Shown here one piece after another: positions 1-8,126 of a stretch of DNA of 8,126 bases (positions are counted from its first letter, which is position 1; every line of letters begins with the position of its first letter). Source of the stretch: Nanobdellota archaeon (lineage in GTDB: Archaea; Nanobdellota; Nanobdellia; Nanobdellales; Nanobdellaceae); assembly GCA_020697515.1 (NCBI GenBank), contig JAIXNB010000001.1, forward strand, positions 1 through 8,126, read 5' to 3'. A model generated the notes under the pieces. The model was not told the DNA's origin, did no database searches, and was given only the letters and a program-made list of their open reading frames with translations. The position numbers and the translations under genes are program-made.

Positions 1-441
1 CTTAGGTGGTCTAGGGACTCTAGATTCTTCTACAAAAAATGTATCTATTCCAGAATATGGATCGTACACCCCTAATCCATTCGGCCCTACAATTTTCATA
101 TATCCTTTATATTCTAAAATTTGCATTTCCAAATCTTTCCTCCCAGCTTCAGAAAATCCTGCCGAGATTATAATAGCATACTTAACTCTCTTTTCTGAAG
201 CCTCTTTTATAACTGCGGGAACTTTTTCAGCCGGTATGGCTATTACTACTAAATCTATATCCTCTGGTATATTCCTAATTGAAGGAAAGCAAGGAACCCC
301 AAGAATTTCTTTATATTTAGGATTTACTGCAAAGATTTTTCCTTTAAATCTCCGAATAAAATTTTTTAAAATTATGTTGCCAGCTTTTCCATCTTTTGGT
401 GAGGCTCCAATAATTGCCACAGAGTTTATATCTCTGAACAT
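1..441 (-). CDS. NDP-forming acyl-CoA synthetase (ADP-forming acetate--CoA ligase type) alpha subunit. Only the N-terminal CoA-binding part (147 codons) is present and the gene runs off the left window edge.
   Basis: Not in the ORF track because no stop lies in the window. Manual minus-strand translation from ATG (441-439) gives MFRDINSVAIIGASPKDGKAGNIILKNF..AVNPKY..IDLVVIAIPAEKV..KYAIIISAGFSEAGR..KIVGPNGLGVYDP and stays open to position 1. An in-frame TAA lies 9 codons upstream of the ATG. The motifs (S-V-A-I-I-GAS, VNP, SAGF-E-G, GPN-x-G) are the hallmarks of the CoA-binding/CoA-ligase domains of archaeal ACD alpha subunits. Confidence 0.85.
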   Translation of the reverse strand, partial: MFRDINSVAIIGASPKDGKAGNIILKNFIRRFKGKIFAVNPKYKEILGVPCFPSIRNIPEDIDLVVIAIPAEKVPAVIKEASEKRVKYAIIISAGFSEAGRKDLEMQILEYKGYMKIVGPNGLGVYDPYSGIDTFFVEESRVPRPPK

Positions 442-465
442 ATTTTCAGTAGTTATTTCGCAAAT

Positions 466-480
466 TTTAATTATTTACCA
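466..480 (-). promoter_or_regulatory. Putative TATA box for the acyl-CoA synthetase gene
   Basis: The minus strand reads ..gtggTAAATAATTAAAAtttgc.., about 28-36 nt upstream of the ATG at 441. This spacing fits an archaeal TATA box with a very short or absent leader. The call rests on position and composition only. Confidence 0.35.
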
Positions 481-733
481 CTTCAGTATTTTTAAATCAT
501 GAAAAGTATCGCCTAGAGCATTTTTAAGGATCCTTATTTTTACAACGTTTGATTCTTTAGTTGTTTTATCCACATGTCCGATAACCCGTTTTTCCGATCC
601 AAACAGTAGTTTTAGTGTTGATACACACCCTTCTGATTCTCCTTAAGGTCCTTTCCTTCGGCTTCTTATAATAAACCGGTGTTAGCATCCCTATATCTCC
701 TAAGAGTCTATAAAAATTTAAAGGTTAAACCTG

Positions 734-1156
734 CTAGCTCGTTATATCCTCAATAAAATACCCATTGTAGTAAATTCTAACTATCGTGCAGTTTTGATCT
801 ACTTCCACAAAGTTTTTAACTAACCCTTTTCTAAATTTTTTACATTGATTTTCTGGCAGGTTATCCTCCGGACTTCTTGGAACATGTACAACATCACATA
901 CCCAGTCAGAGTAGTGCCAATAAGTAATTAAACTAGGTATTTCTGATAGGCATTCTGAAGATAAACTTCTATTTTGTTGAGATAGGATATCCTTAGCATA
1001 TAAACAAAGTTGTCTACAAGTTTCTGCAACCTGGTAAGCCACTTTCATTTCATTCTGACTAGAATCTCCAACAATGGAGGAATATCCTAAGTATGAAAAT
1101 ATAATAGATAATGTTAAAACTATTGCAAGGATGATAGACCTTCTCTTTTTATCCAT
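734..1156 (-). CDS. Hypothetical membrane-anchored or secreted Cys-rich protein (140 aa); possible pilin-like or exported subunit
   Basis: This is a track ORF. Its N-terminus, MDKKRRS-IILAIVLTLSIIFSYLGY, is a short basic head followed by about 18 hydrophobic residues. The remainder is a roughly 110-aa polar domain with exactly six Cys (ETC, QLC, SEC, WVC, NQC, QNC). Its ATG overlaps the stop of the upstream gene (TAATG at 1154-1158), which implies translational coupling. Confidence 0.7.
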   Translation of the reverse strand: MDKKRRSIILAIVLTLSIIFSYLGYSSIVGDSSQNEMKVAYQVAETCRQLCLYAKDILSQQNRSLSSECLSEIPSLITYWHYSDWVCDVVHVPRSPEDNLPENQCKKFRKGLVKNFVEVDQNCTIVRIYYNGYFIEDITS

Positions 1157-1845
1157 TAAGGTCTTCTTATGCTATCTCTTAAAAGTTTTATCTCCTCTAT
1201 AGTTTCTTTTAGCTCTTTTACAGATTCTGATATAGCAGGGATCATTGTACGTACCAATTTGTGTAGGGCCTGTACTTCTACTGTGGCTTCTTTTATACCT
1301 TTATCATATTCTTCTATCTTTTTGATAAGAGTGTTATACAGGTTGTCAACCTTATCGGACAATTTCTTCACATCTTCTTTAATTTGTTCTATCTCAAATG
1401 ATAATCTCTCCTTTGCTAAGTTCAGATCATTTATTTTCTGATCTAGGATTTGTATTTTTTCTTCTACAACTTTCTCAGCTATAGCTTGGATATATGAGTC
1501 CCAATCAAAATCTTGGGAGGTATAACTTTGAGTATATTGATATTCGTACTGATTTTGTGTCTGTTGTTGATCTTGGAATGTAGAGGACATTTGAAATGGT
1601 TGTGTATGAGTTTGGACATTTTGGAAGTCTATTCCAAAGCTCTGATTAAAGTTTGTAGATTGGTTTCTGGATGGATACATTTGGAAACTATTAGAGAATT
1701 GTGATGGAGATACTCTAGGTTGTTCTGGAGTTAAAGCCGGTTGTGGTTGTTCTAAATTAAAGTTCAGATCTTCCTCAGTTTTTGTTTCTTTTTTCTTTAA
1801 GAAGGAATCAAACAACCCCATGTTATATAATAGATTTTTCTTCAT
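1156..1845 (-). CDS. Hypothetical protein (229 aa, or 221 aa from Met9) with an amphipathic N-terminus, a Gln-rich low-complexity domain and a C-terminal coiled coil
   Basis: This is a track ORF. There are two candidate starts. ATG 1845 overlaps the upstream gene by 23 nt. ATG 1821 (MGLFDSFLKKK...) lies one nt after the upstream TAA (1823-1825). Residues 31-111 contain 20 Gln of 81 by hand count, no Lys, and four FQ motifs. Residues about 117-229 are K/E/I/L-rich with heptad character (EKIQILDQKINDLNLAKERLSFEIEQIKEDVKKLSDKVDNLYNTLIKKIEEY...). Confidence 0.75.
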   Translation of the reverse strand: MKKNLLYNMGLFDSFLKKKETKTEEDLNFNLEQPQPALTPEQPRVSPSQFSNSFQMYPSRNQSTNFNQSFGIDFQNVQTHTQPFQMSSTFQDQQQTQNQYEYQYTQSYTSQDFDWDSYIQAIAEKVVEEKIQILDQKINDLNLAKERLSFEIEQIKEDVKKLSDKVDNLYNTLIKKIEEYDKGIKEATVEVQALHKLVRTMIPAISESVKELKETIEEIKLLRDSIRRP

Positions 1846-2200
1846 TTTTTAACATTTCCTTTACCTTATTTTCAACAATTTTGTTAATCAATTCTATAGC
1901 CTCTTTCTTAGTAAGAAAATCGAATGGATTTATGAGATCTAGATATCTCTCTATAACTTTAACTCTATCATTTGTTGCAAATAGGGGAAGTTGATCTAGT
2001 ATAGCATTTACCTTCAAATTTAATTCTTGTATATCCTTTCTTAATCCTGAGATCTCATTGTTTATTTGATTTATTTTCATTTCAACCTCTTTATCCTTTT
2101 CAACAAAATTAACCTCCAAATTTTCAATTAATTGCCTTAATATATTAAGTCTGTCCTCTATAATTCTCAAGCGCCTCTCGATATCTTGCATTTCTTGCAT
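1823..2200 (-). CDS. Hypothetical coiled-coil protein (125 aa), possibly FlaC/ArlC-like
   Basis: This is a track ORF. It has a long heptad-like segment (IERRLRIIEDRLNILRQLIENLEVNFVEKDKEVEMKINQINNEISGLRKDIQELNLKVNAILDQL) followed by ERYLDLINPFDFL (NPF at nt 1922-1930). It is the first gene of the minus-strand trio and starts 36 bp from the divergent ATPase gene. Confidence 0.75.
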   Translation of the reverse strand: MQEMQDIERRLRIIEDRLNILRQLIENLEVNFVEKDKEVEMKINQINNEISGLRKDIQELNLKVNAILDQLPLFATNDRVKVIERYLDLINPFDFLTKKEAIELINKIVENKVKEMLKNEEKSII

Positions 2201-2236
2201 TTTTTTATATTATTTGGAAGATCATATATATTTTAT
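2201..2236. promoter_or_regulatory. Compact bidirectional promoter spacer with back-to-back TATA-like boxes
   Basis: The whole spacer is ttttttatattatttggaagatcatatatattttat. TTTTTTATAT (2201-2210) lies about 30 nt upstream of the + strand ATG at 2237. On the minus strand, AAAATATATA (about 2225-2234) lies about 29 nt upstream of the minus-strand ATG at 2200. Both geometries predict near-leaderless mRNAs. Confidence 0.45.
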
Positions 2237-4468
2237 ATGGTCATTAGGACTTCTGTAGAGTATATTGGTAGTGGGAAGGTTCTTATAATAGATGCTAAAG
2301 AATACCCTAAACTTGCCACCATAGAAGATGATCCTAATATAATGAGCTTGTGTATCCAAAAGATATCTGAAGATCCTACTATAATTGAGATAAATATTGA
2401 ACAAGAAGAGTTGATATCATATTATGAGGATACAATCATGATATTAAAACAATTTGCAGATGTATATCTAAAGATTAAGCAAATTTTGAGAGAGTACTAT
2501 AGTTATTTGTTATCAGCTAATCCATTATTTCATGAATACAAAAATATATTAGATGTGTTGGATAGAGAGTATTTATACGATCCTATAGGAGCATATGTTA
2601 AAGTGAAAAGGTGGTATAGGAGGTTAAACTTATTAATATCACAAAATCCAAATTTAGAAAGAAGTGCAATACCTTTAATACAACTTATTTCAACATTTGT
2701 TAACACATTTGAAAGCTTATCTTTATATGAGTATATAAAAGATTTTATTCCTGGTTATAAAATAGGAGATCGTTCAATATATAAAAGATTATTTGTTGCA
2801 GACATCAAACCGAAGTTTATTTCTATAAAATATCTTTCTAAAATACCAGAAGATGCTGAAATTATAGAAACGTATTCTATAGATAATGAAACAGAAGTTA
2901 CAATATTCAGAAAGCCTAATGAGATTATTCGTTATTATTATATTTTCCCAGAGGAGTATAAATTATATGAAGAAGAGTTGATGTTGATAAATAAAGCTAG
3001 AGAAGTTCTTATACAATACCAACCAAAGAGGGAAGACTACCTCGATCCTGAAAGATTAAAAGAGATCTATGAGAAAATTATAGATAATATCTTAATTAGC
3101 CTCTCAAAGACATATAATGTGGTTCTAACCCAAAATAAAATCAAGAAGTTGAGAAGTGTCCTAATCAGATACACTATTGGGTTTGGAATCCTAGAGAAAG
3201 TTGCAAAAGATGAGAACGTACAGGATATTTTTGTAAACCCTCCTCCTGGAACTAATCCAATAAGCCTTATACATGCAAATTATGATTTATGTATTACAAA
3301 TATTATACCTACAAAAAGAGAACTAGAGTCATGGGCTACAAAGTTGAGGTTAATTTCTGGTAGACCATTTGATGAATCAAATCCTGTTTTAGATACTGAA
3401 GTATTCATAAACGATATAAGGTTAAGAGTAGCTGCAATAATGGAACCATTAAGTCCAAAAGGTCTGTCCTATGTGTTTAGAAGGCATAGAACAAAACCAT
3501 GGACCATGCCATTGTTTATAAAGGAAAAAATGATCAGTTCTATAGCAGCAGGCTTATTATCATTTTTAGTAGAAAATGGGAGATCTATATTAATTGCGGG
3601 TACGAGAGGCGCGGGTAAAACATCTTTACTAACATCTCTTATGCTAGAACTACCAAGAAATACCCGTATAATTACAATTGAAGACACCTTGGAGATTCCT
3701 GTAAATTACATTAGAAAATTGGGTTACAACATCGTCTCTATGAAAGTACGAAGTCCGTTTTCTCTTCAAACTTCAGAACTTAGTGCAGAAGATGGTGTTA
3801 GAGTATCCTTAAGATTAGGAGACTCTGCTATAATCTTGGGTGAAGTTAGATCAAAGGAAGCGAAAACTTTGTACGAAGCCATGAGAGTCGGAGCTTTAGC
3901 TAACGCGGTTATGGGGACAATTCATGCAGAGAGTCCATATGGCGTTTTTGACAGAGTCGTGAATGATTTAGGTGTGCCAAAAACTTCCTTTAAGGCAACT
4001 GATATCATAGTTATTGCAAATCCAATAAAAGATCCATCCGGGTTGAGAAAGTACAGGAGAGTCATAAGGATAACAGAAGTTAGAAAGCATTGGGAATCTG
4101 ACCCCCTAAAGGAAGGGGGTTTTATGGATCTAATGGTTTACGATACAGATAAAGATATTCTTAGGCCAACACCTAGTTTATTGAATGGAGATTCTGATAT
4201 TCTTAAATCCATTGCCTCAAGAATAAAGCTACTAGCAGGATCTTGGGAACGTCTTTGGGATAATATAGAAATAAGGGCTAAAACAAAGGAATTGTTAGTT
4301 GAATATTCTATTAAGTATAATAAACCATACCTACTAGAGGCAGATTTCGTTGTAAAATCTAATGAAATCCTACATAAAATAATAGAGAGATGTTTGCTAG
4401 AGTATGGAGATATATCCAAGGAATATATAGTTAATGACTTTAAAAGATGGTTGGGGCAGCAGATCTAA
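2237..4468 (+). CDS. Type II/IV secretion-family ATPase, FlaI/ArlI-PilB (VirB11/GspE superfamily) type, 743 aa with N- and C-terminal extensions
   Basis: The track ORF opens at TTG 2186; I prefer the first ATG at 2237 (MVIRTSVEY...). Walker A is GTRGAGKTS (nt 3599-3625). The Asp box is RIITIEDTLEI. Walker B is DSAIILGEVR (nt about 3831-3860). The His box is GTIHAES. Upstream motifs typical of FlaI-like N-domains are also present: YYIFPEEYKLYEEELMLINKARE, RYTIGFGILEKVAKDENVQDIFVN and SYVFRRH. Confidence 0.93.
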   Translation: MVIRTSVEYIGSGKVLIIDAKEYPKLATIEDDPNIMSLCIQKISEDPTIIEINIEQEELISYYEDTIMILKQFADVYLKIKQILREYYSYLLSANPLFHEYKNILDVLDREYLYDPIGAYVKVKRWYRRLNLLISQNPNLERSAIPLIQLISTFVNTFESLSLYEYIKDFIPGYKIGDRSIYKRLFVADIKPKFISIKYLSKIPEDAEIIETYSIDNETEVTIFRKPNEIIRYYYIFPEEYKLYEEELMLINKAREVLIQYQPKREDYLDPERLKEIYEKIIDNILISLSKTYNVVLTQNKIKKLRSVLIRYTIGFGILEKVAKDENVQDIFVNPPPGTNPISLIHANYDLCITNIIPTKRELESWATKLRLISGRPFDESNPVLDTEVFINDIRLRVAAIMEPLSPKGLSYVFRRHRTKPWTMPLFIKEKMISSIAAGLLSFLVENGRSILIAGTRGAGKTSLLTSLMLELPRNTRIITIEDTLEIPVNYIRKLGYNIVSMKVRSPFSLQTSELSAEDGVRVSLRLGDSAIILGEVRSKEAKTLYEAMRVGALANAVMGTIHAESPYGVFDRVVNDLGVPKTSFKATDIIVIANPIKDPSGLRKYRRVIRITEVRKHWESDPLKEGGFMDLMVYDTDKDILRPTPSLLNGDSDILKSIASRIKLLAGSWERLWDNIEIRAKTKELLVEYSIKYNKPYLLEADFVVKSNEILHKIIERCLLEYGDISKEYIVNDFKRWLGQQI

Positions 4469-6438
4469 GTAGAATAAAAAAAGAATACGACTTATACAGA
4501 GAGTATTACTTTGGGAATAGTGTAAAAATTTTTGAAAAGTTGGCAAAGCTCGCGGGCAAATATATAAAAATAAAAGTAGATCCTAAGAAGAAAAAAGAAT
4601 ACGAGAAAATCAATAGTGAGGTCCATTTAAAAGTTACAATAGAAGATATTTATGCCTTGGCTTCTCTATCTCTAGTTATATCCGTTATTATAGGACTGTT
4701 ACTCCTTATATTCTTAAAAAATCTTTTAATTGTTGTATTCTTTGCGATAATAGGTTTTCTTTTATATAATTTAATAATATATTATCCATCATTACTTTAC
4801 CAGATTCTTGAAAAGAAAAAGGAGGGGCAACTGGTCTTGGCAGTAATGTTTCTAGCAATGAAGTTATTAGAAAATCCTAATCTTGAGGTAGCATTTGAAC
4901 ACACTGCTAAGCATTTATCACCCCCACTAAATCTAGACTTCCTAAGATTATTGTGGGATACATACAATAAGAAATATGCATCGCTGTATGAAGCTATAGA
5001 TATTTACTTAAAGAGATGGGAAGATAAAGCATACCACTTCGTTATCGGAATGCAATTGTTAATATCTTCCCTATATGAAGTTGAACAAGTTAGAAGGGAG
5101 ATGTTAATAGATAAAGCAGTGGAGGAGATGCTGAATCATTTATATGAGCGAATGTCTTTTTATGTTAGGGAACTTCAAAGTCCGATAAACCTAATATATA
5201 TGCTTGGAATAGTACTCCCGACCCTTTTGTTAACTTTATTCCCCTTAATATCTGTATTAATGGCAGATATCTTCTCACCGGGTTTCCTTTTATTTATGTT
5301 CGATGTAGCTATCCCATTCATTGTATTTATACTTATAAAGCAATATATTGAAGCCAAAAGAATAGAAGCTGTGTCTAAAGAAGATTTATACTTCTATTTA
5401 TACTTAAAGAAGAATGATATTAAATTTAAAATAATTTCAATTATGGCGGGGATCTTTATTACAATTCTAATCTTCTTTGGAGCAATATTCTTCTTAAAAA
5501 ATTTAATATTTGAGTATAGTATAATAGCCATTCTTGTATCCGGGATATTTATTTTATCATTAGGCTTAGGGATATCTTTCGGGAGTTTTCTTTACTATAA
5601 TTTTTATAGATCATTTGATAAAAGGTTGGATATAATTGAAAAAGAGTTATCATCCTTCTTATTTTCCCTAGGTAATGCTCTAAATAAAAACATCCCACTA
5701 GAATCTGCTATTATCTCTATATATCCAAGATTTAAGAAAAAAGAAATAGGAAAGTTTATTGCAACAATATATAGGAATATAAGGATATTTAATATGTCTA
5801 TATATGATGCAATTTTTGATAAAGAAAGAGGAGCACTAATAAAATTCCCATCCTCATATTTAGAAGCTGCTATGGAAGTTATCATAGAAAGTTCTAAAGT
5901 ATCTCCAAAATCAGCGGCAAAAGCCGCTATAGCTATCTCAAGATACTTTTTATATTTGGAGAGAGTAAAGCTTAGACTTTTAGATCTAACTGCAGAAGTT
6001 ACTTCACAAATGAAATCTTTAGCAAAGATATTAGCTCCAACAATATTAGCTATAATTGTTGCTGTTGCTATCATGTCATTAGTGATTCTCTACAAGTTAG
6101 GAATAGCCATAGAAAACATTAGAGATGTATACTCTATAGGAGGAGAGTATGATTATTATTCTTTTGTTTCATTAGAGATTCTCGATCTTCTTACATTTAA
6201 AGGTACAGTCTCTCCAGCCACAATCTACATAGTAGTTGGTATATTCAATATAGTATCAACAATATTAATTGCATATATGCTCAATATTATAGAAAATGGA
6301 AAAAATACTATAAAAGAGAAGAAGTATATCTATGAATACCTATTGGTATCTTCTATACTATTTTTTATAGTAGCTACATTTGGAAGTATTGCACTTTGGA
6401 TGTTTGCGGAAACTATGATGTCAGCGATAATATCTTAG
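4447..6438 (+). CDS. Polytopic membrane platform protein, FlaJ/ArlJ-TadC/PilC (T2SS-F) type, 663 aa
   Basis: The ATG at 4447 overlaps the ATPase stop by 22 nt. I count about 9 hydrophobic segments by eye, arranged 2+4+3. They are separated by two soluble blocks of about 120-130 aa (residues about 125-250 and 395-520). The second block contains LSSFLFSLGNALNKNIPLESAI, which is typical of the duplicated cytoplasmic T2SS-F domain. The position directly downstream of the secretion ATPase is the conserved arrangement. Confidence 0.88.
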   Translation: MVGAADLSRIKKEYDLYREYYFGNSVKIFEKLAKLAGKYIKIKVDPKKKKEYEKINSEVHLKVTIEDIYALASLSLVISVIIGLLLLIFLKNLLIVVFFAIIGFLLYNLIIYYPSLLYQILEKKKEGQLVLAVMFLAMKLLENPNLEVAFEHTAKHLSPPLNLDFLRLLWDTYNKKYASLYEAIDIYLKRWEDKAYHFVIGMQLLISSLYEVEQVRREMLIDKAVEEMLNHLYERMSFYVRELQSPINLIYMLGIVLPTLLLTLFPLISVLMADIFSPGFLLFMFDVAIPFIVFILIKQYIEAKRIEAVSKEDLYFYLYLKKNDIKFKIISIMAGIFITILIFFGAIFFLKNLIFEYSIIAILVSGIFILSLGLGISFGSFLYYNFYRSFDKRLDIIEKELSSFLFSLGNALNKNIPLESAIISIYPRFKKKEIGKFIATIYRNIRIFNMSIYDAIFDKERGALIKFPSSYLEAAMEVIIESSKVSPKSAAKAAIAISRYFLYLERVKLRLLDLTAEVTSQMKSLAKILAPTILAIIVAVAIMSLVILYKLGIAIENIRDVYSIGGEYDYYSFVSLEILDLLTFKGTVSPATIYIVVGIFNIVSTILIAYMLNIIENGKNTIKEKKYIYEYLLVSSILFFIVATFGSIALWMFAETMMSAIIS

Positions 6439-7089
6439 GTAGAAATGTGTAATCGCATTTATTTTTCTATTTAATATGTCATCTATTAATCTAGGACATG
6501 CAAAGACAACCCAAAATTCTATTTGAGGAAAGTTCTGAAATTCATCAAAATCTATATTATCCGTAATAAATAAGTATACATCTTTATTTTCATCTTTTAG
6601 AATTTTCTTCCAATATAACAACTTGTTATAAAAATACTGTCCAGGTTTTACCGATGTAACAAGACCTACAACTTTACTACTTTTTAATTTATTGAGTAAA
6701 ATATAGATTCTTTTCATGAATATGGGATCGGGAGATAAAACTTTAATATCTCCTGTTAATGGGCTATAAACTATTACTTTTTTGTCAAACCTACGAGCAA
6801 TCTCTGTAGGATGAAATAACCCTTCTCCAATAAATAATATAGTGTCTACAGGAATATTAGCTGCTAAAGGATCACAACCAAGAACCTGCATACTATATTC
6901 CATATATGGACTTTTTCCAATATGAACTATATATCCTCTTTTGGATAATTCTTCTTTGATTATTTGAGCAATATCTAAAAATTGTAAAGTAGTGGTTACT
7001 CCAATTTCTTTTGGTAATATATCTAACAATTTGTTAAAATTTTTCAGTTCATTGATTCTATATCTAATCTCGATATAATATATATCCAT
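6421..7089 (-). CDS. dph2: Dph2-like 2-(3-amino-3-carboxypropyl)histidine synthase (diphthamide biosynthesis), domains 2-3 only (222 aa); N-terminally truncated or split
   Basis: The segment EIGVTTTLQFLDIAQIIKEELSKRGYIVHIGK..MQVLGCDPLAA..ILFIGEGLFHPTEIA..VVFACPRLIDD matches, from memory, the central and C-terminal parts of archaeal Dph2 (..IIVTTTAQH..QVLGC..LFIGSGIFHP..VVVACPR.. in the Pyrococcus enzyme). The roughly 100-aa first domain with the first Fe-S Cys ligand is absent. The gene's 3' end overlaps the convergent platform gene by 18 nt. Confidence 0.8.
   Translation of the reverse strand: MDIYYIEIRYRINELKNFNKLLDILPKEIGVTTTLQFLDIAQIIKEELSKRGYIVHIGKSPYMEYSMQVLGCDPLAANIPVDTILFIGEGLFHPTEIARRFDKKVIVYSPLTGDIKVLSPDPIFMKRIYILLNKLKSSKVVGLVTSVKPGQYFYNKLLYWKKILKDENKDVYLFITDNIDFDEFQNFPQIEFWVVFACPRLIDDILNRKINAITHFYLRYYR
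6458..6466 (+). terminator. Oligo-T tract, candidate archaeal terminator for the ATPase/platform operon
   Basis: The sequence tttattttt lies 20-28 nt after the TAG at 6436-6438. Archaeal termination commonly occurs at T-runs. The tract lies inside the convergent Dph2-like CDS, so the evidence is positional only. Confidence 0.3.
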
Positions 7090-7333
7090 ATATATTTCTA
7101 ATTTAGTTTAAACCTTAGTTTTACTATCCTCTATATATCTATTTCTATCCAAAGTTTTTAAGATATTTCGTTGTATACATACTCACTAATACATAATAGA
7201 TTGTTAAGGGTTAACTAGCACTAAATTAAGCTAAAAAATGGTTTTTGTAAAACTTAGTTGTGATAGATATATTTCTTAGAACATCTCTTCTTGAGGTAGA
7301 TATTAGTTATGGAAGTCTAAATTAAAATTCTAG

Positions 7334-7813
7334 TTATTTACTTTGTAGTTTTTGATATAATTTAAATATTCTATCTCCATAATAGTGTAAATTTCTTATT
7401 ACTTTACCTTTATTCATCTTTTGTATCTCTTCGTAGGCATATAAGGATAATCCTAAAGCTAATAATTTCTCATCTTCAGAAATTATGATAACTGCTTTAT
7501 CTCTCTTTATTTCTTTATCAACCTTTGTTATCCCTGGTCTAAAAACATCTGCACCATTTAATATTTTCTCCTTTGCCCCTCTATCTACAACTATATATGG
7601 GATCTTAAAATCATGATCTATTAGTAACAAGAGTGTAGGAAATATTTTCTTACCATAAATAAATGCAATAGGTTTGCGATTTAATATATACACTCTATTT
7701 TTATCATCAAAGATAATATTTTCTTTTTTTAATTTAACTCTGAAATATATAGAATACTCTTTCTCTAGAACCTCTTGTAGTATTCTTTTTTCTTTATTAG
7801 ATAATGGTCGCAT
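7334..7813 (-). CDS. PUA-domain RNA-binding protein (MCT-1/Tma20-like small archaeal PUA protein), 159 aa
   Basis: This is a track ORF with ATG at 7811-7813. The C-terminal half, VVDRGAKEKILNGADVFRPGITKVDKEIKRDKAVIIISEDEKLLALGLSLYAYEEI..KGKVIRNLHYYGD, carries the characteristic PUA pattern (V-D-x-GA-x-x-x-L-x-GA-D-V-x-x-PGI ... A-x-G). The size and pre-PUA N-terminal half fit the standalone archaeal family. Confidence 0.85.
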   Translation of the reverse strand: MRPLSNKEKRILQEVLEKEYSIYFRVKLKKENIIFDDKNRVYILNRKPIAFIYGKKIFPTLLLLIDHDFKIPYIVVDRGAKEKILNGADVFRPGITKVDKEIKRDKAVIIISEDEKLLALGLSLYAYEEIQKMNKGKVIRNLHYYGDRIFKLYQKLQSK

Positions 7814-7823
7814 AAACTTTTAA

Positions 7824-8126
7824 TTAATTAATATACATAAGCCTCTCCACCCCAAAGGACGGAGCTTCCTCCGTTCTACCTCTCTTTACAGTTACGGCTT
7901 TATACGAAGGTTTGGGGGGCTCACTCCTCTCCCATCCCGACGGACTCATTATCTGTCGGGCTATATTTATTGCGAAGTTCAGATCTCTATTATATTTTAA
8001 TCTACAATTAAAACATACGATCATTCTACCTTCAATTCGGGTTTGAAGCAGTTTCTGATTTAGGTAGCATTTAACCATTTTCAATATTTTTTAATACCCT
8101 TTAGAGCAATTAGGTATGCGAAAGAA
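7824..8126 (-). pseudogene. tnpB: Decayed 3' remnant of an IS200/IS605-family tnpB (OrfB/IS1341-type) gene, running off the right window edge
   Basis: The track ORF (TTG start at 8084) encodes ..RMIVCFNCRLKYNRDLNFAINIARQ... This is the second Cys pair of the OrfB zinc ribbon followed by the RuvC-III D-R-D-x-N-A-A-x-N-I motif. Manual upstream translation (8126-8085) gives FFRIPNCSKGY*KI, a degenerate first 'CSKCGY' Cys pair interrupted by an in-frame TAA (8091-8093). There is therefore no intact full-length ORF. Confidence 0.7.
7841..7960. ncRNA. G+C-rich structured element at the 3' end of the tnpB remnant (omega-RNA / sotRNA / HgcC-like candidate); strand unresolved
   Basis: I count 67 G+C in 120 nt (56%), against 11 G+C in 60 nt for 7341-7400. 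Hairpin A pairs 7857-7864 with 7869-7876 around a 4-nt loop. Hairpin B pairs 7936-7943 with 7953-7960 around a 9-nt loop. A 7-bp long-range helix, CCCCAAA 7850-7856 with TTTGGGG 7911-7917, encloses hairpin A. The motif CCTCTCC occurs twice (7842-7848 and 7925-7931). Confidence 0.5.

Follow-up and report, generated by a model that had tools for sequence, protein, structure and literature searches.

The locus described here raises the question of which membrane machine, if any, is specified when a nanoarchaeon encodes a secretion ATPase and a polytopic membrane protein back to back with a set of coiled-coil genes. It lies in a stretch of 8,126 nucleotides from a Nanobdellota archaeon (Nanobdellales; GenBank assembly GCA_020697515.1, contig JAIXNB010000001.1, positions 1 to 8,126 of the forward strand), the whole of which was analyzed and is hereafter called the window. 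Our analysis makes it likely that the locus encodes the core of a membrane machine of the type IV filament kind, conserved throughout the class Nanoarchaeia and separate from the archaellum. The core pair is, in our judgement, a known orphan system; what is newly delineated is its coiled-coil accessory pair, CC1 and CC2.

Organization of the locus

The window is poor in GC (23–40% across 500-bp windows), and identical copies of it are found on three contigs from metagenomes or metagenome-assembled genomes; its nearest protein relatives are labelled Nanopusillaceae, Nanobdella aerobiophila, Nanoclepta minutus and Nanobsidianus stetteri. A first-pass annotation, made from the sequence of the window, had described two operons diverging from a 36-bp spacer, an arrangement that is fully borne out, with the spacer at 2201–2236. 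The features of the locus are the following (TM, transmembrane):

734–1156, minus strand: CR, a Cys-rich membrane-anchored protein of 140 residues, with a TM segment and six Cys
1156–1821, minus strand: CC2, a Gln-rich/coiled-coil protein of 221 residues, with heptads and no TM segment
1823–2200, minus strand: CC1, a coiled-coil protein of 125 residues, with heptads and no TM segment
2201–2236: the divergent spacer, 36 bp, between the ATG codons of CC1 and the ATPase
2204–2211: TATA-like box 1, TTTATATT, in the spacer sequence
about 2224–2234: TATA-like box 2, ATATATATTTT, in the spacer sequence
2237–4468, plus strand: the T2SSE ATPase, 743 residues, assigned by Pfam T2SSE and its motifs
4447–6438, plus strand: the polytopic platform, 663 residues, assigned by context and homology to a haloarchaeal platform

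The ATG of CC1 is the complement of 2198–2200 and that of the ATPase lies at 2237, which leaves the 36 bp between them. A TTG at 2186 is available among the listed open reading frames (ORFs) as an alternative start for the ATPase; the ATG start, giving 743 residues, is called in three independent assemblies, and the N-termini of the orthologues align there. Within the operons, the CC2/CR junction is a minus-strand TAATG (1158–1154; a stop/start overlap of 1 nt), the CC1/CC2 junction reads TAA-c-ATG (1825–1819), and the ATPase and platform genes overlap by 22 nt (4447–4468); the stop/start overlaps inside each operon indicate translational coupling. These three junctions had all been proposed as signs of coupling and are present, and only the alternative proposed for CC1/CC2, a 23-nt overlap, is unlikely: the ATG at 1821, which gives a CC2 of 221 residues, is to be preferred because the motif M-x-L-F-x-x-KKK then stands at residue 1 (see below).

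Of seven Nanobdellales loci checked, five have a spacer of 36–40 bp between CC1 and the ATPase, and two have longer ones, of 86 and 91 bp. The spacer contains two conserved A/T-rich TATA-like boxes, each centred about 29 nt from the ATG that it would serve, so placed that the spacer may represent a back-to-back pair of archaeal promoters giving rise to leaderless mRNAs.

Nine window ORFs, including every gene called in the matching assemblies, were scanned against Pfam and NCBIfam; no archaellin, pilin, KaiC/ArlH, ArlF/G or A24 peptidase was found among them, in agreement with what had been noted for the window. Nor were arl genes, a pilin or a prepilin peptidase found within the 10-kb flanks in the window contig, Nanobdella or Nanoclepta.

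A secretion ATPase distinct from that of the archaellum

Judged by family match and motifs, the 743-residue protein is a secretion enzyme of the T2SSE/VirB11 superfamily with intact motifs, and in this respect its initial description as a FlaI/PilB-like ATPase was correct. The Pfam T2SSE family (PF00437) matches residues 391–594 with 69.6 bits, against a cut-off of 24.9, and the Walker A, Walker B/Asp and His boxes are intact; GTRGAGKT (Walker A, 455), IITIED (478), GEVR (535) and the TIH of the His box (561) have core residues that are invariant across 10 orthologues. FlaI is the top NCBIfam model for the protein, and the N. aerobiophila orthologue is annotated as 'flagella-related ATPase FlaI'; the FlaI equivalog (NF058587) aligns with residues 208–689 and, at 142.6 bits, stays below its cut-off of 550, and the BasE model (NF053672) scores 60.8 bits against a cut-off of 1000. 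A TadA-type model, with 121.6 bits, is also among the best. In searches of PDB sequences the best match is A. fulgidus GspE2 (2OAP; 112.9 bits), CpaF is among the best (about 80 bits) and S. acidocaldarius FlaI scores 77 bits. As far as such comparisons go, the window ATPase is not the archaellum ATPase ArlI/FlaI.

At its N-terminus the protein has some 200 additional residues, which are conserved and clade-specific, and at its C-terminus an extension of about 50. Extra terminal domains are known from non-archaellar ATPases, where they have been proposed to be interfaces for subsystem-specific accessories (Sivabalasarma and Albers 2026, bioRxiv 10.64898/2026.04.22.720090). The paper on the N. 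equitans proteome holds nothing on the ATPase. Outside the DPANN archaea, the best relative found in a search of plasmids (229 bits) is an ATPase of Haloterrigena whose N-terminus is rich in Cys; the window ATPase family aligns with it at E 1.9e-56 in hhalign. In some lineages, then, the ATPase is a host of inteins: two orthologues, P0025 and P0116, are much longer (917 and 1279 residues) and bear intein and LAGLIDADG domains (PF14890, PF14528).

A divergent platform protein

The downstream gene codes for a polytopic protein that had been called FlaJ/TadC-like, a description that rests on gene context and on homology to a haloarchaeal platform, not on a match to a family model. The window platform has no match in Pfam, PF00482 included, or in NCBIfam, and an NCBIfam scan of 62 platform orthologues returned nothing. 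T2SSF matches below threshold occur in 23 of the 62 orthologues (best E 1.2e-4); scanned protein by protein, they reach 13–17 bits against a cut-off of 25.2, at the positions of both the N-domain and the C-domain, the two that a twin-domain architecture would lead one to expect. An AlphaFold2 model built from 72 sequences (predicted local distance difference test, pLDDT, 87.3; predicted TM-score, pTM, 0.83) is all-helical, with some 7–9 TM helices and two cytoplasmic helix bundles. A Foldseek search of the PDB with this model gave nothing at E<0.001, the PilC model 3jc8_Ca ranking fourth with a probability of 0.47; platform profiles built from 4 and 62 sequences had no relevant match among PDB sequences, and hhalign of the N-half against the C-half detected no trace of the internal duplication typical of T2SSF (E 0.34).

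The platform adjoining the Haloterrigena ATPase, by contrast, aligns over 494 columns in hhalign with a probability of 99.7% (E 6.4e-27). Since this haloarchaeal homologue is also without a T2SSF match, the platform clade seems to be generally divergent. Two platform homologues are labelled TadB by the Joint Genome Institute (JGI). Taken together, context and a clear homology to the haloarchaeal platform argue that the polytopic protein is the predicted platform of the ATPase.

Two families of coiled-coil proteins

Two of the three minus-strand genes had been taken to code for cytoplasmic coiled-coil proteins, and both products are indeed coiled-coil proteins devoid of TM segments that co-occur with the ATPase and platform across the Nanoarchaeia (see below). 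CC1 is rich in heptads at residues 1–41 and ends in a conserved motif, LPLFAT..VK.IE.YLDLINPFDF; its Pfam and PDB matches, like those of CC2, are of the generic coiled-coil kind. CC2 consists of an N-terminal basic amphipathic motif (MGLFDSFLKKK), a linker rich in Gln, Ser, Asn and Pro (22% Gln) and, at the C-terminus, a coiled-coil domain about 105 residues long, with heptads concentrated at residues 116–174. The N-terminal motif is kept across orthologues, where it reads MALFGKKK, MAFFKFGKKKK or MALMDIFKKK; its hydrophobic residues lie at i, i+1, i+4 and i+5, and we read it as a probable membrane-binding or docking helix.

The CC2 linker is Gln/Asn-rich and of low complexity in the Nanobdellales; in its place the Woesearchaeota have a motif of about 40 residues, P.EQVL.M..QG.SNNQII..LQ.QGY...QIFDAM, which we read from its pattern as helical. 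We report this difference as a putative replacement of the woesearchaeal motif by the Gln/Asn-rich linker in the Nanobdellales. The woesearchaeal motif (for example in locus L007, 7018–7638, minus strand) has no Pfam or PDB match, and some proteins containing it are labelled MerR-like by JGI. A CC2 family profile finds 400 proteins, among which the named ones, including Nst1_445, are all from Nanoarchaeota or Woesearchaeota; no specific Pfam domain was found in the family. A match of CC2 to a 'short tail fiber' in the PDB (E 4.5e-6) was rejected, as it aligned on heptad-repeat sequence only. A weak motif, [IV]K[AV][ML]EK[VY]...P, is common to CC1 and CC2 (hhalign E 4.4e-4, probability 33%) and is only a hint that they may be distant paralogues.

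Likeness of the coiled-coil proteins to the archaellum scaffolds ArlX or ArlC/D/E had also been envisaged. Homology was sought and not found, so that analogy is what is left of the idea. FlaC_arch (PF05377) meets CC1 with an E of 0.097 and matches 9 of 51 orthologues, fewer than do unrelated coiled-coil families, and Arch_fla_DE (PF04659) was never matched by the CC1 or CC2 families. Scans of all five proteins against PADLOC and PHROGs returned coiled-coil or P-loop noise, and in none of these searches were CC1 and CC2 linked to ArlC/D/E, ArlX, defence systems or phage families.

Conservation of a four-gene unit

In a scan of one genome per species for relatives of the ATPase, at least 593 species genomes were found to encode one. 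The best 80 ATPase loci, with identities of 45–62%, are nearly all labelled Nanoarchaeota, Woesearchaeota or Nanopusillus; the other labels among these 80 are 'uncultured Methanosarcinales' (many), 'Armatimonadota' (one) and 'archaeon' (one), and we take the oddly labelled loci to be mislabelled bins. Between Nanobdellales and Woesearchaeota the ATPases are 45–49% identical. Six-frame ORFs of the retrieved loci (83 once redundancy is set aside) were then searched with hidden Markov models of the five families, and conservation was counted over the loci with enough flank:

platform, downstream of the ATPase: 64 of 66 loci, within 150 bp in 54
CC1, divergent and upstream of the ATPase: 42 of 56 loci, Woesearchaeota included
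CC2, divergent and upstream of the ATPase: 41 of 56 loci
CR, next to CC2: Nanobdellales loci only

Synteny of the three minus-strand genes with the ATPase had been proposed as a check. The counts uphold it for CC1 and CC2; the neighbourhood of CR is confined to the Nanobdellales, and the conserved unit therefore comprises four genes, not five. In about 1 Mb of sequence from the 83 loci, three ORFs have N-termini resembling class III signal peptides, and none of them adjoins the module.

A polytopic membrane family of about 190 residues, with no Pfam match, is present in 98 copies in 32 woesearchaeal loci, convergent on CC2; L007 has three such genes in tandem (5212–5793, 5811–6473 and 6476–7012, plus strand). 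This family might belong to the module as an additional, lineage-specific part.

The Cys-rich protein

CR had been regarded as an exported subunit of the machine, a membership that we consider doubtful. It has one N-terminal TM segment (residues 7–25) and Cys residues at 47, 51, 69, 87, 105 and 123, all six conserved, and it adjoins CC2 only in loci L001–L014. A phmmer search of 1.84 billion representative sequences found 405 CR cluster representatives at E<=1e-3, the named ones being from Micrarchaeota or 'archaeon'. The N-termini vary across the family, and a lipobox-like N-terminus is present in 70 of the 150 best relatives. The family consensus is C..LC...GPCLS..DWVCDVAH.PR...DN.PENQC..FR.G.A.HFVEVD..C..I., in which the stretch DWVCDVAHxPR...DN.PENQC has near-invariant His, Pro, Arg and Asp residues. 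In a confident AlphaFold2 model (pLDDT 91.7) the TM helix is accompanied by a helix of 29 residues and by a small sheet, and a Foldseek search of the PDB with it found no neighbour and no pilin match. The MDKKRRS leader of CR is class III-like and made the protein a candidate pilin, which was rejected: the leader is not kept by the orthologues or the wider family, and the CR orthologues lack the Gly or Ala at position −1 of a class III signal peptide. From these features, CR is a separate, widespread and unannotated family of proteins predicted to be secreted or lipid-anchored, whose place in the operon is specific to the Nanobdellales.

Neighbouring genes

The remaining genes of the window are:

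1–441, minus strand: ADP-forming acetyl-CoA synthetase subunit, 5′ part (CoA_binding), from the gene call on the identical contig L001
6421–7089, minus strand: Dph2 fragment, 222 residues, assigned by Pfam
7334–7813, minus strand: PUA protein
7824–8084, minus strand: TnpB remnant, 86 residues, assigned by NCBIfam TnpB

On the 25-kb identical contig, the flanks contain acetyl-CoA synthetase, POR, Dph2 and PUA genes. An 88-residue ORF at 236–502 (plus strand), antisense to the acetyl-CoA synthetase gene, is probably spurious. Rfam and tRNA scans of the window were empty, including the 292-bp intergenic region at 442–733. The Dph2 piece, the 3′ end of which overlaps that of the convergent platform gene by 18 nt, matches positions 64–270 of the 302 in the Pfam profile; its orthologues are similarly short (225 residues in Nanobdella and 211 in Nanoclepta). 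Dph2 is a split gene in Nst1, made up of Nst1_222 and Nst1_440 (Podar et al. 2013), and the window Dph2 appears to represent one of the two halves of a gene whose split is kept in the Nanobdellales. The ORF at 7824–8084 matches the C-terminal end only of a TnpB/Cas12f-type nuclease (NCBIfam TnpB, E 4.6e-4) and resembles what is left of a decayed IS200/IS605 element.

Relation to known systems

The component set had been said to match no characterized archaeal system. As regards experiments this stands; the core pair itself, by the mapping given here, has already been catalogued as an orphan. Nst1 encodes five secretion ATPases, three of clade 2, one of the archaellum clade (GI 490715305) and one of clade 4 (GI 490715604), the last of which is, in the published tree, sister to the N. 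equitans protein 41615211 and adjoins Thermoplasmatales and Halobacteria (Makarova, Koonin & Albers 2016, PMC4858521). The same study recorded nanoarchaeal clade 4/4F without identifiable pilins, and a coiled-coil cytoplasmic protein, arCOG07564, accompanying the haloarchaeal 4F version (PMC4858521). The FlaI paralogues listed for Nst1 are Nst1_088, 227 and 260, and two type II/IV secretion components were counted as a common gain of the Nanoarchaeota (Podar et al. 2013), which have also been credited with two type IV pilus systems besides a true archaellum (Jarett et al. 2018).

The gaps between the GI numbers of the three clade-2 entries are 137 and 33, and those between the locus tags 139 and 33; this matched spacing would place the clade-4 entry 490715604 at about Nst1_440–443. 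EOD42408, the orthologue of the window ATPase in Nst1, comes two accessions before EOD42410 (Nst1_445, the CC2 orthologue) and should therefore be Nst1_443. By this numbering of accessions and GI entries, the window ATPase would belong to the nanoarchaeal clade 4/4F group. The archaellum-clade ATPase of Nst1 (GI 490715305) and its 549-residue FlaJ (GI 490715622) are distinct from the ATPase/platform pair described here. N. equitans is without archaellum genes, and on the same mapping it would retain an orthologue of the ATPase.

Among known systems, 4F, a secretion ATPase with a TadC-like platform whose haloarchaeal counterpart is PilB2/PilC2, resembles the locus in having an ATPase core with an extra N-terminal region, and its haloarchaeal loci include a coiled-coil cytoplasmic partner; ATPase core and platform are homologous to those of the Haloterrigena pair. 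The Cys-rich N-terminus of the Haloterrigena ATPase, of the kind described for 4F, together with the homology of the platforms, provides independent support for the 4/4F placement. The haloarchaeal locus differs in having pilin-like genes, DUF7311 and DUF7382, none of which is found near the nanoarchaeal loci, and at the nanoarchaeal locus there is no CetZ, CBS or SMC neighbour. The Haloterrigena turkmenica pair, on plasmid pHTUR04 (locus L089, 7365–8431), is flanked by DUF7382 and DUF7311, both small and with an N-terminal TM segment, and by a CDC48-type AAA ATPase.

The archaellum motor (ArlI/ArlJ) shares with the locus the ATPase superfamily and the order of ATPase followed by platform, and in function the two may plausibly be analogous through a cytoplasmic coiled-coil scaffold. 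It differs in that the window ATPase, about 200 residues longer at its N-terminus, falls short of the FlaI cut-off, and that no ArlH, ArlF/G or archaellin is encoded nearby; its scaffolds differ too, as CC1 and CC2 have no TM segment, which ArlX needs at its N-terminus, and show no Arch_fla_DE or credible FlaC match. Likeness to the bacterial Tad/Flp pilus core (CpaF with TadB/TadC) consists in the CpaF and TadA-type matches of the ATPase and the TadB labels of platform homologues (see above). Here the platform is one fused protein of about 660 residues, as against separate TadB and TadC; no Flp pilin, TadV peptidase or secretin was found at the locus, and the curated cut-offs were missed.

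Proposed function and alternative explanations

In the working model that we favour, the T2SSE ATPase, presumably a hexamer, would dock beneath the polytopic platform, and ATP hydrolysis would power the platform in inserting or extracting subunits held in the membrane, or some other substrate, by extension from what is established for ArlI/ArlJ, PilB/PilC and CpaF/TadBC. CC1 and CC2, produced from a putative shared bidirectional promoter, would form a system-specific cytoplasmic scaffold or adaptor, probably in contact with the N-terminal 200 or so residues of the ATPase, with CC2 held at the membrane through its basic amphipathic motif. Filament subunits, if any, would be encoded in trans, elsewhere in the genome, and CR would be a lineage-specific neighbour outside the core. 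All that the model says about how the complex assembles, what the coiled-coil pair does and what the substrate would be is inferred. Several observations weigh against a filament-type machine so composed: the locus has neither a filament subunit nor a prepilin peptidase linked to it; an A24 peptidase was not found in the two nanoarchaea analyzed by Makarova et al. (PMC4858521); CC1 and CC2 are not encoded within 8 kb on either side in about 25% of the loci; and the clade 4/4F assignment rests on accession and GI spacing.

The absence of pilins could mean that filament assembly has been lost, the pair acting as a pilin-independent translocase or extractor of proteins, lipids or other cargo at the site of host contact, with the coiled-coil proteins as cargo adaptors. 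No cognate pilin is encoded in cis in the 83 loci, the ATPase and platform have large extra regions, and nanoarchaea must obtain lipids and metabolites from the host; in addition, pilins of this clade were not recognized in nanoarchaeal genomes, and in two of these no A24 peptidase was found (PMC4858521). Archaeal pilins are, however, often encoded away from the core machinery, and Nanobdella has several archaellin-like or pilin-like proteins without an assigned role, as well as a second type of filament. Moreover, we know of no T2SSE/T2SSF-type machine that works without pilin-like subunits. On balance we regard a translocase of this kind as quite improbable. A different objection concerns the coiled-coil pair: the ATPase and platform may form a filament machine while CC1 and CC2 serve another process, such as division, membrane remodelling or chromosome handling, and share the promoter region only. 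Both proteins are without detectable homology to pilus or archaellum accessories, they are absent from the flanks of that quarter of the loci, and the N-terminal motif of CC2 is presumably similar to the helices by which many unrelated scaffold proteins bind membranes. Against this, the divergent adjacency has been kept even though the ATPases are only 45–62% identical to that of the window, and gene order is generally poorly conserved in nanoarchaea. The spacer of 36–40 bp in five of seven Nanobdellales loci forces shared regulation there, and the matches to defence and phage families did not go beyond coiled-coil noise. That the coiled-coil pair serves another process seems unlikely to us.

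That the locus is simply the archaellum motor is very hard to sustain. The ATPase would then be ArlI, the platform ArlJ and the coiled-coil proteins divergent forms of ArlC/D/E or ArlX, scattered by genome scrambling; the Nanobdellales are archaellated according to the literature, FlaI is the top NCBIfam model and the annotation of the N. aerobiophila orthologue, and CC1 has marginal FlaC_arch matches. Yet the FlaI score is 142.6 against a cut-off of 550, FlaC_arch does no better on CC1 than other coiled-coil families and Arch_fla_DE was never matched; Nst1 has another ATPase of the archaellum clade and another FlaJ, and N. equitans, by the mapping above, would have kept an orthologue of the ATPase despite having no archaellum genes. 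A type IV filament-type machine separate from the archaellum remains, for us, the probable identity of the locus.

A bolder extension of this reading can be envisaged. In the Nanobdellales a filament of about 8 nm passes through a cone-shaped attachment organelle. The four-gene module might be the motor that builds or powers a nanoarchaeal host-contact apparatus, for which the 8-nm filament of the attachment organelle would be the candidate structure and the coiled-coil pair a cytoplasmic anchoring ring; the module would then be a lineage-defining machine of archaea that parasitize other archaea. We offer this as speculation and think it, as it stands, unlikely to be right.

Significance for the Nanoarchaeia

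Relative to the literature searched, several things appear to be new: the unit of four genes, its two families of coiled-coil proteins, the way in which the domains of CC2 are laid out, the extent to which the unit is conserved, and the removal of CR from the core to the rank of a lineage-specific neighbour. The occurrence in at least 593 species genomes, the inferred retention in N. equitans, the slow evolution of the ATPase (45–49% identity) and the presence of inteins suggest a core function and not an optional pilus. Where type IV filament systems are surveyed in archaea, CC1 and CC2 provide two new marker families. Attachment to a host is the way of life of the Nanoarchaeia and of other DPANN archaea; for co-culture work with Nanobdella and with YN1/YN4, the four-gene unit offers concrete targets.

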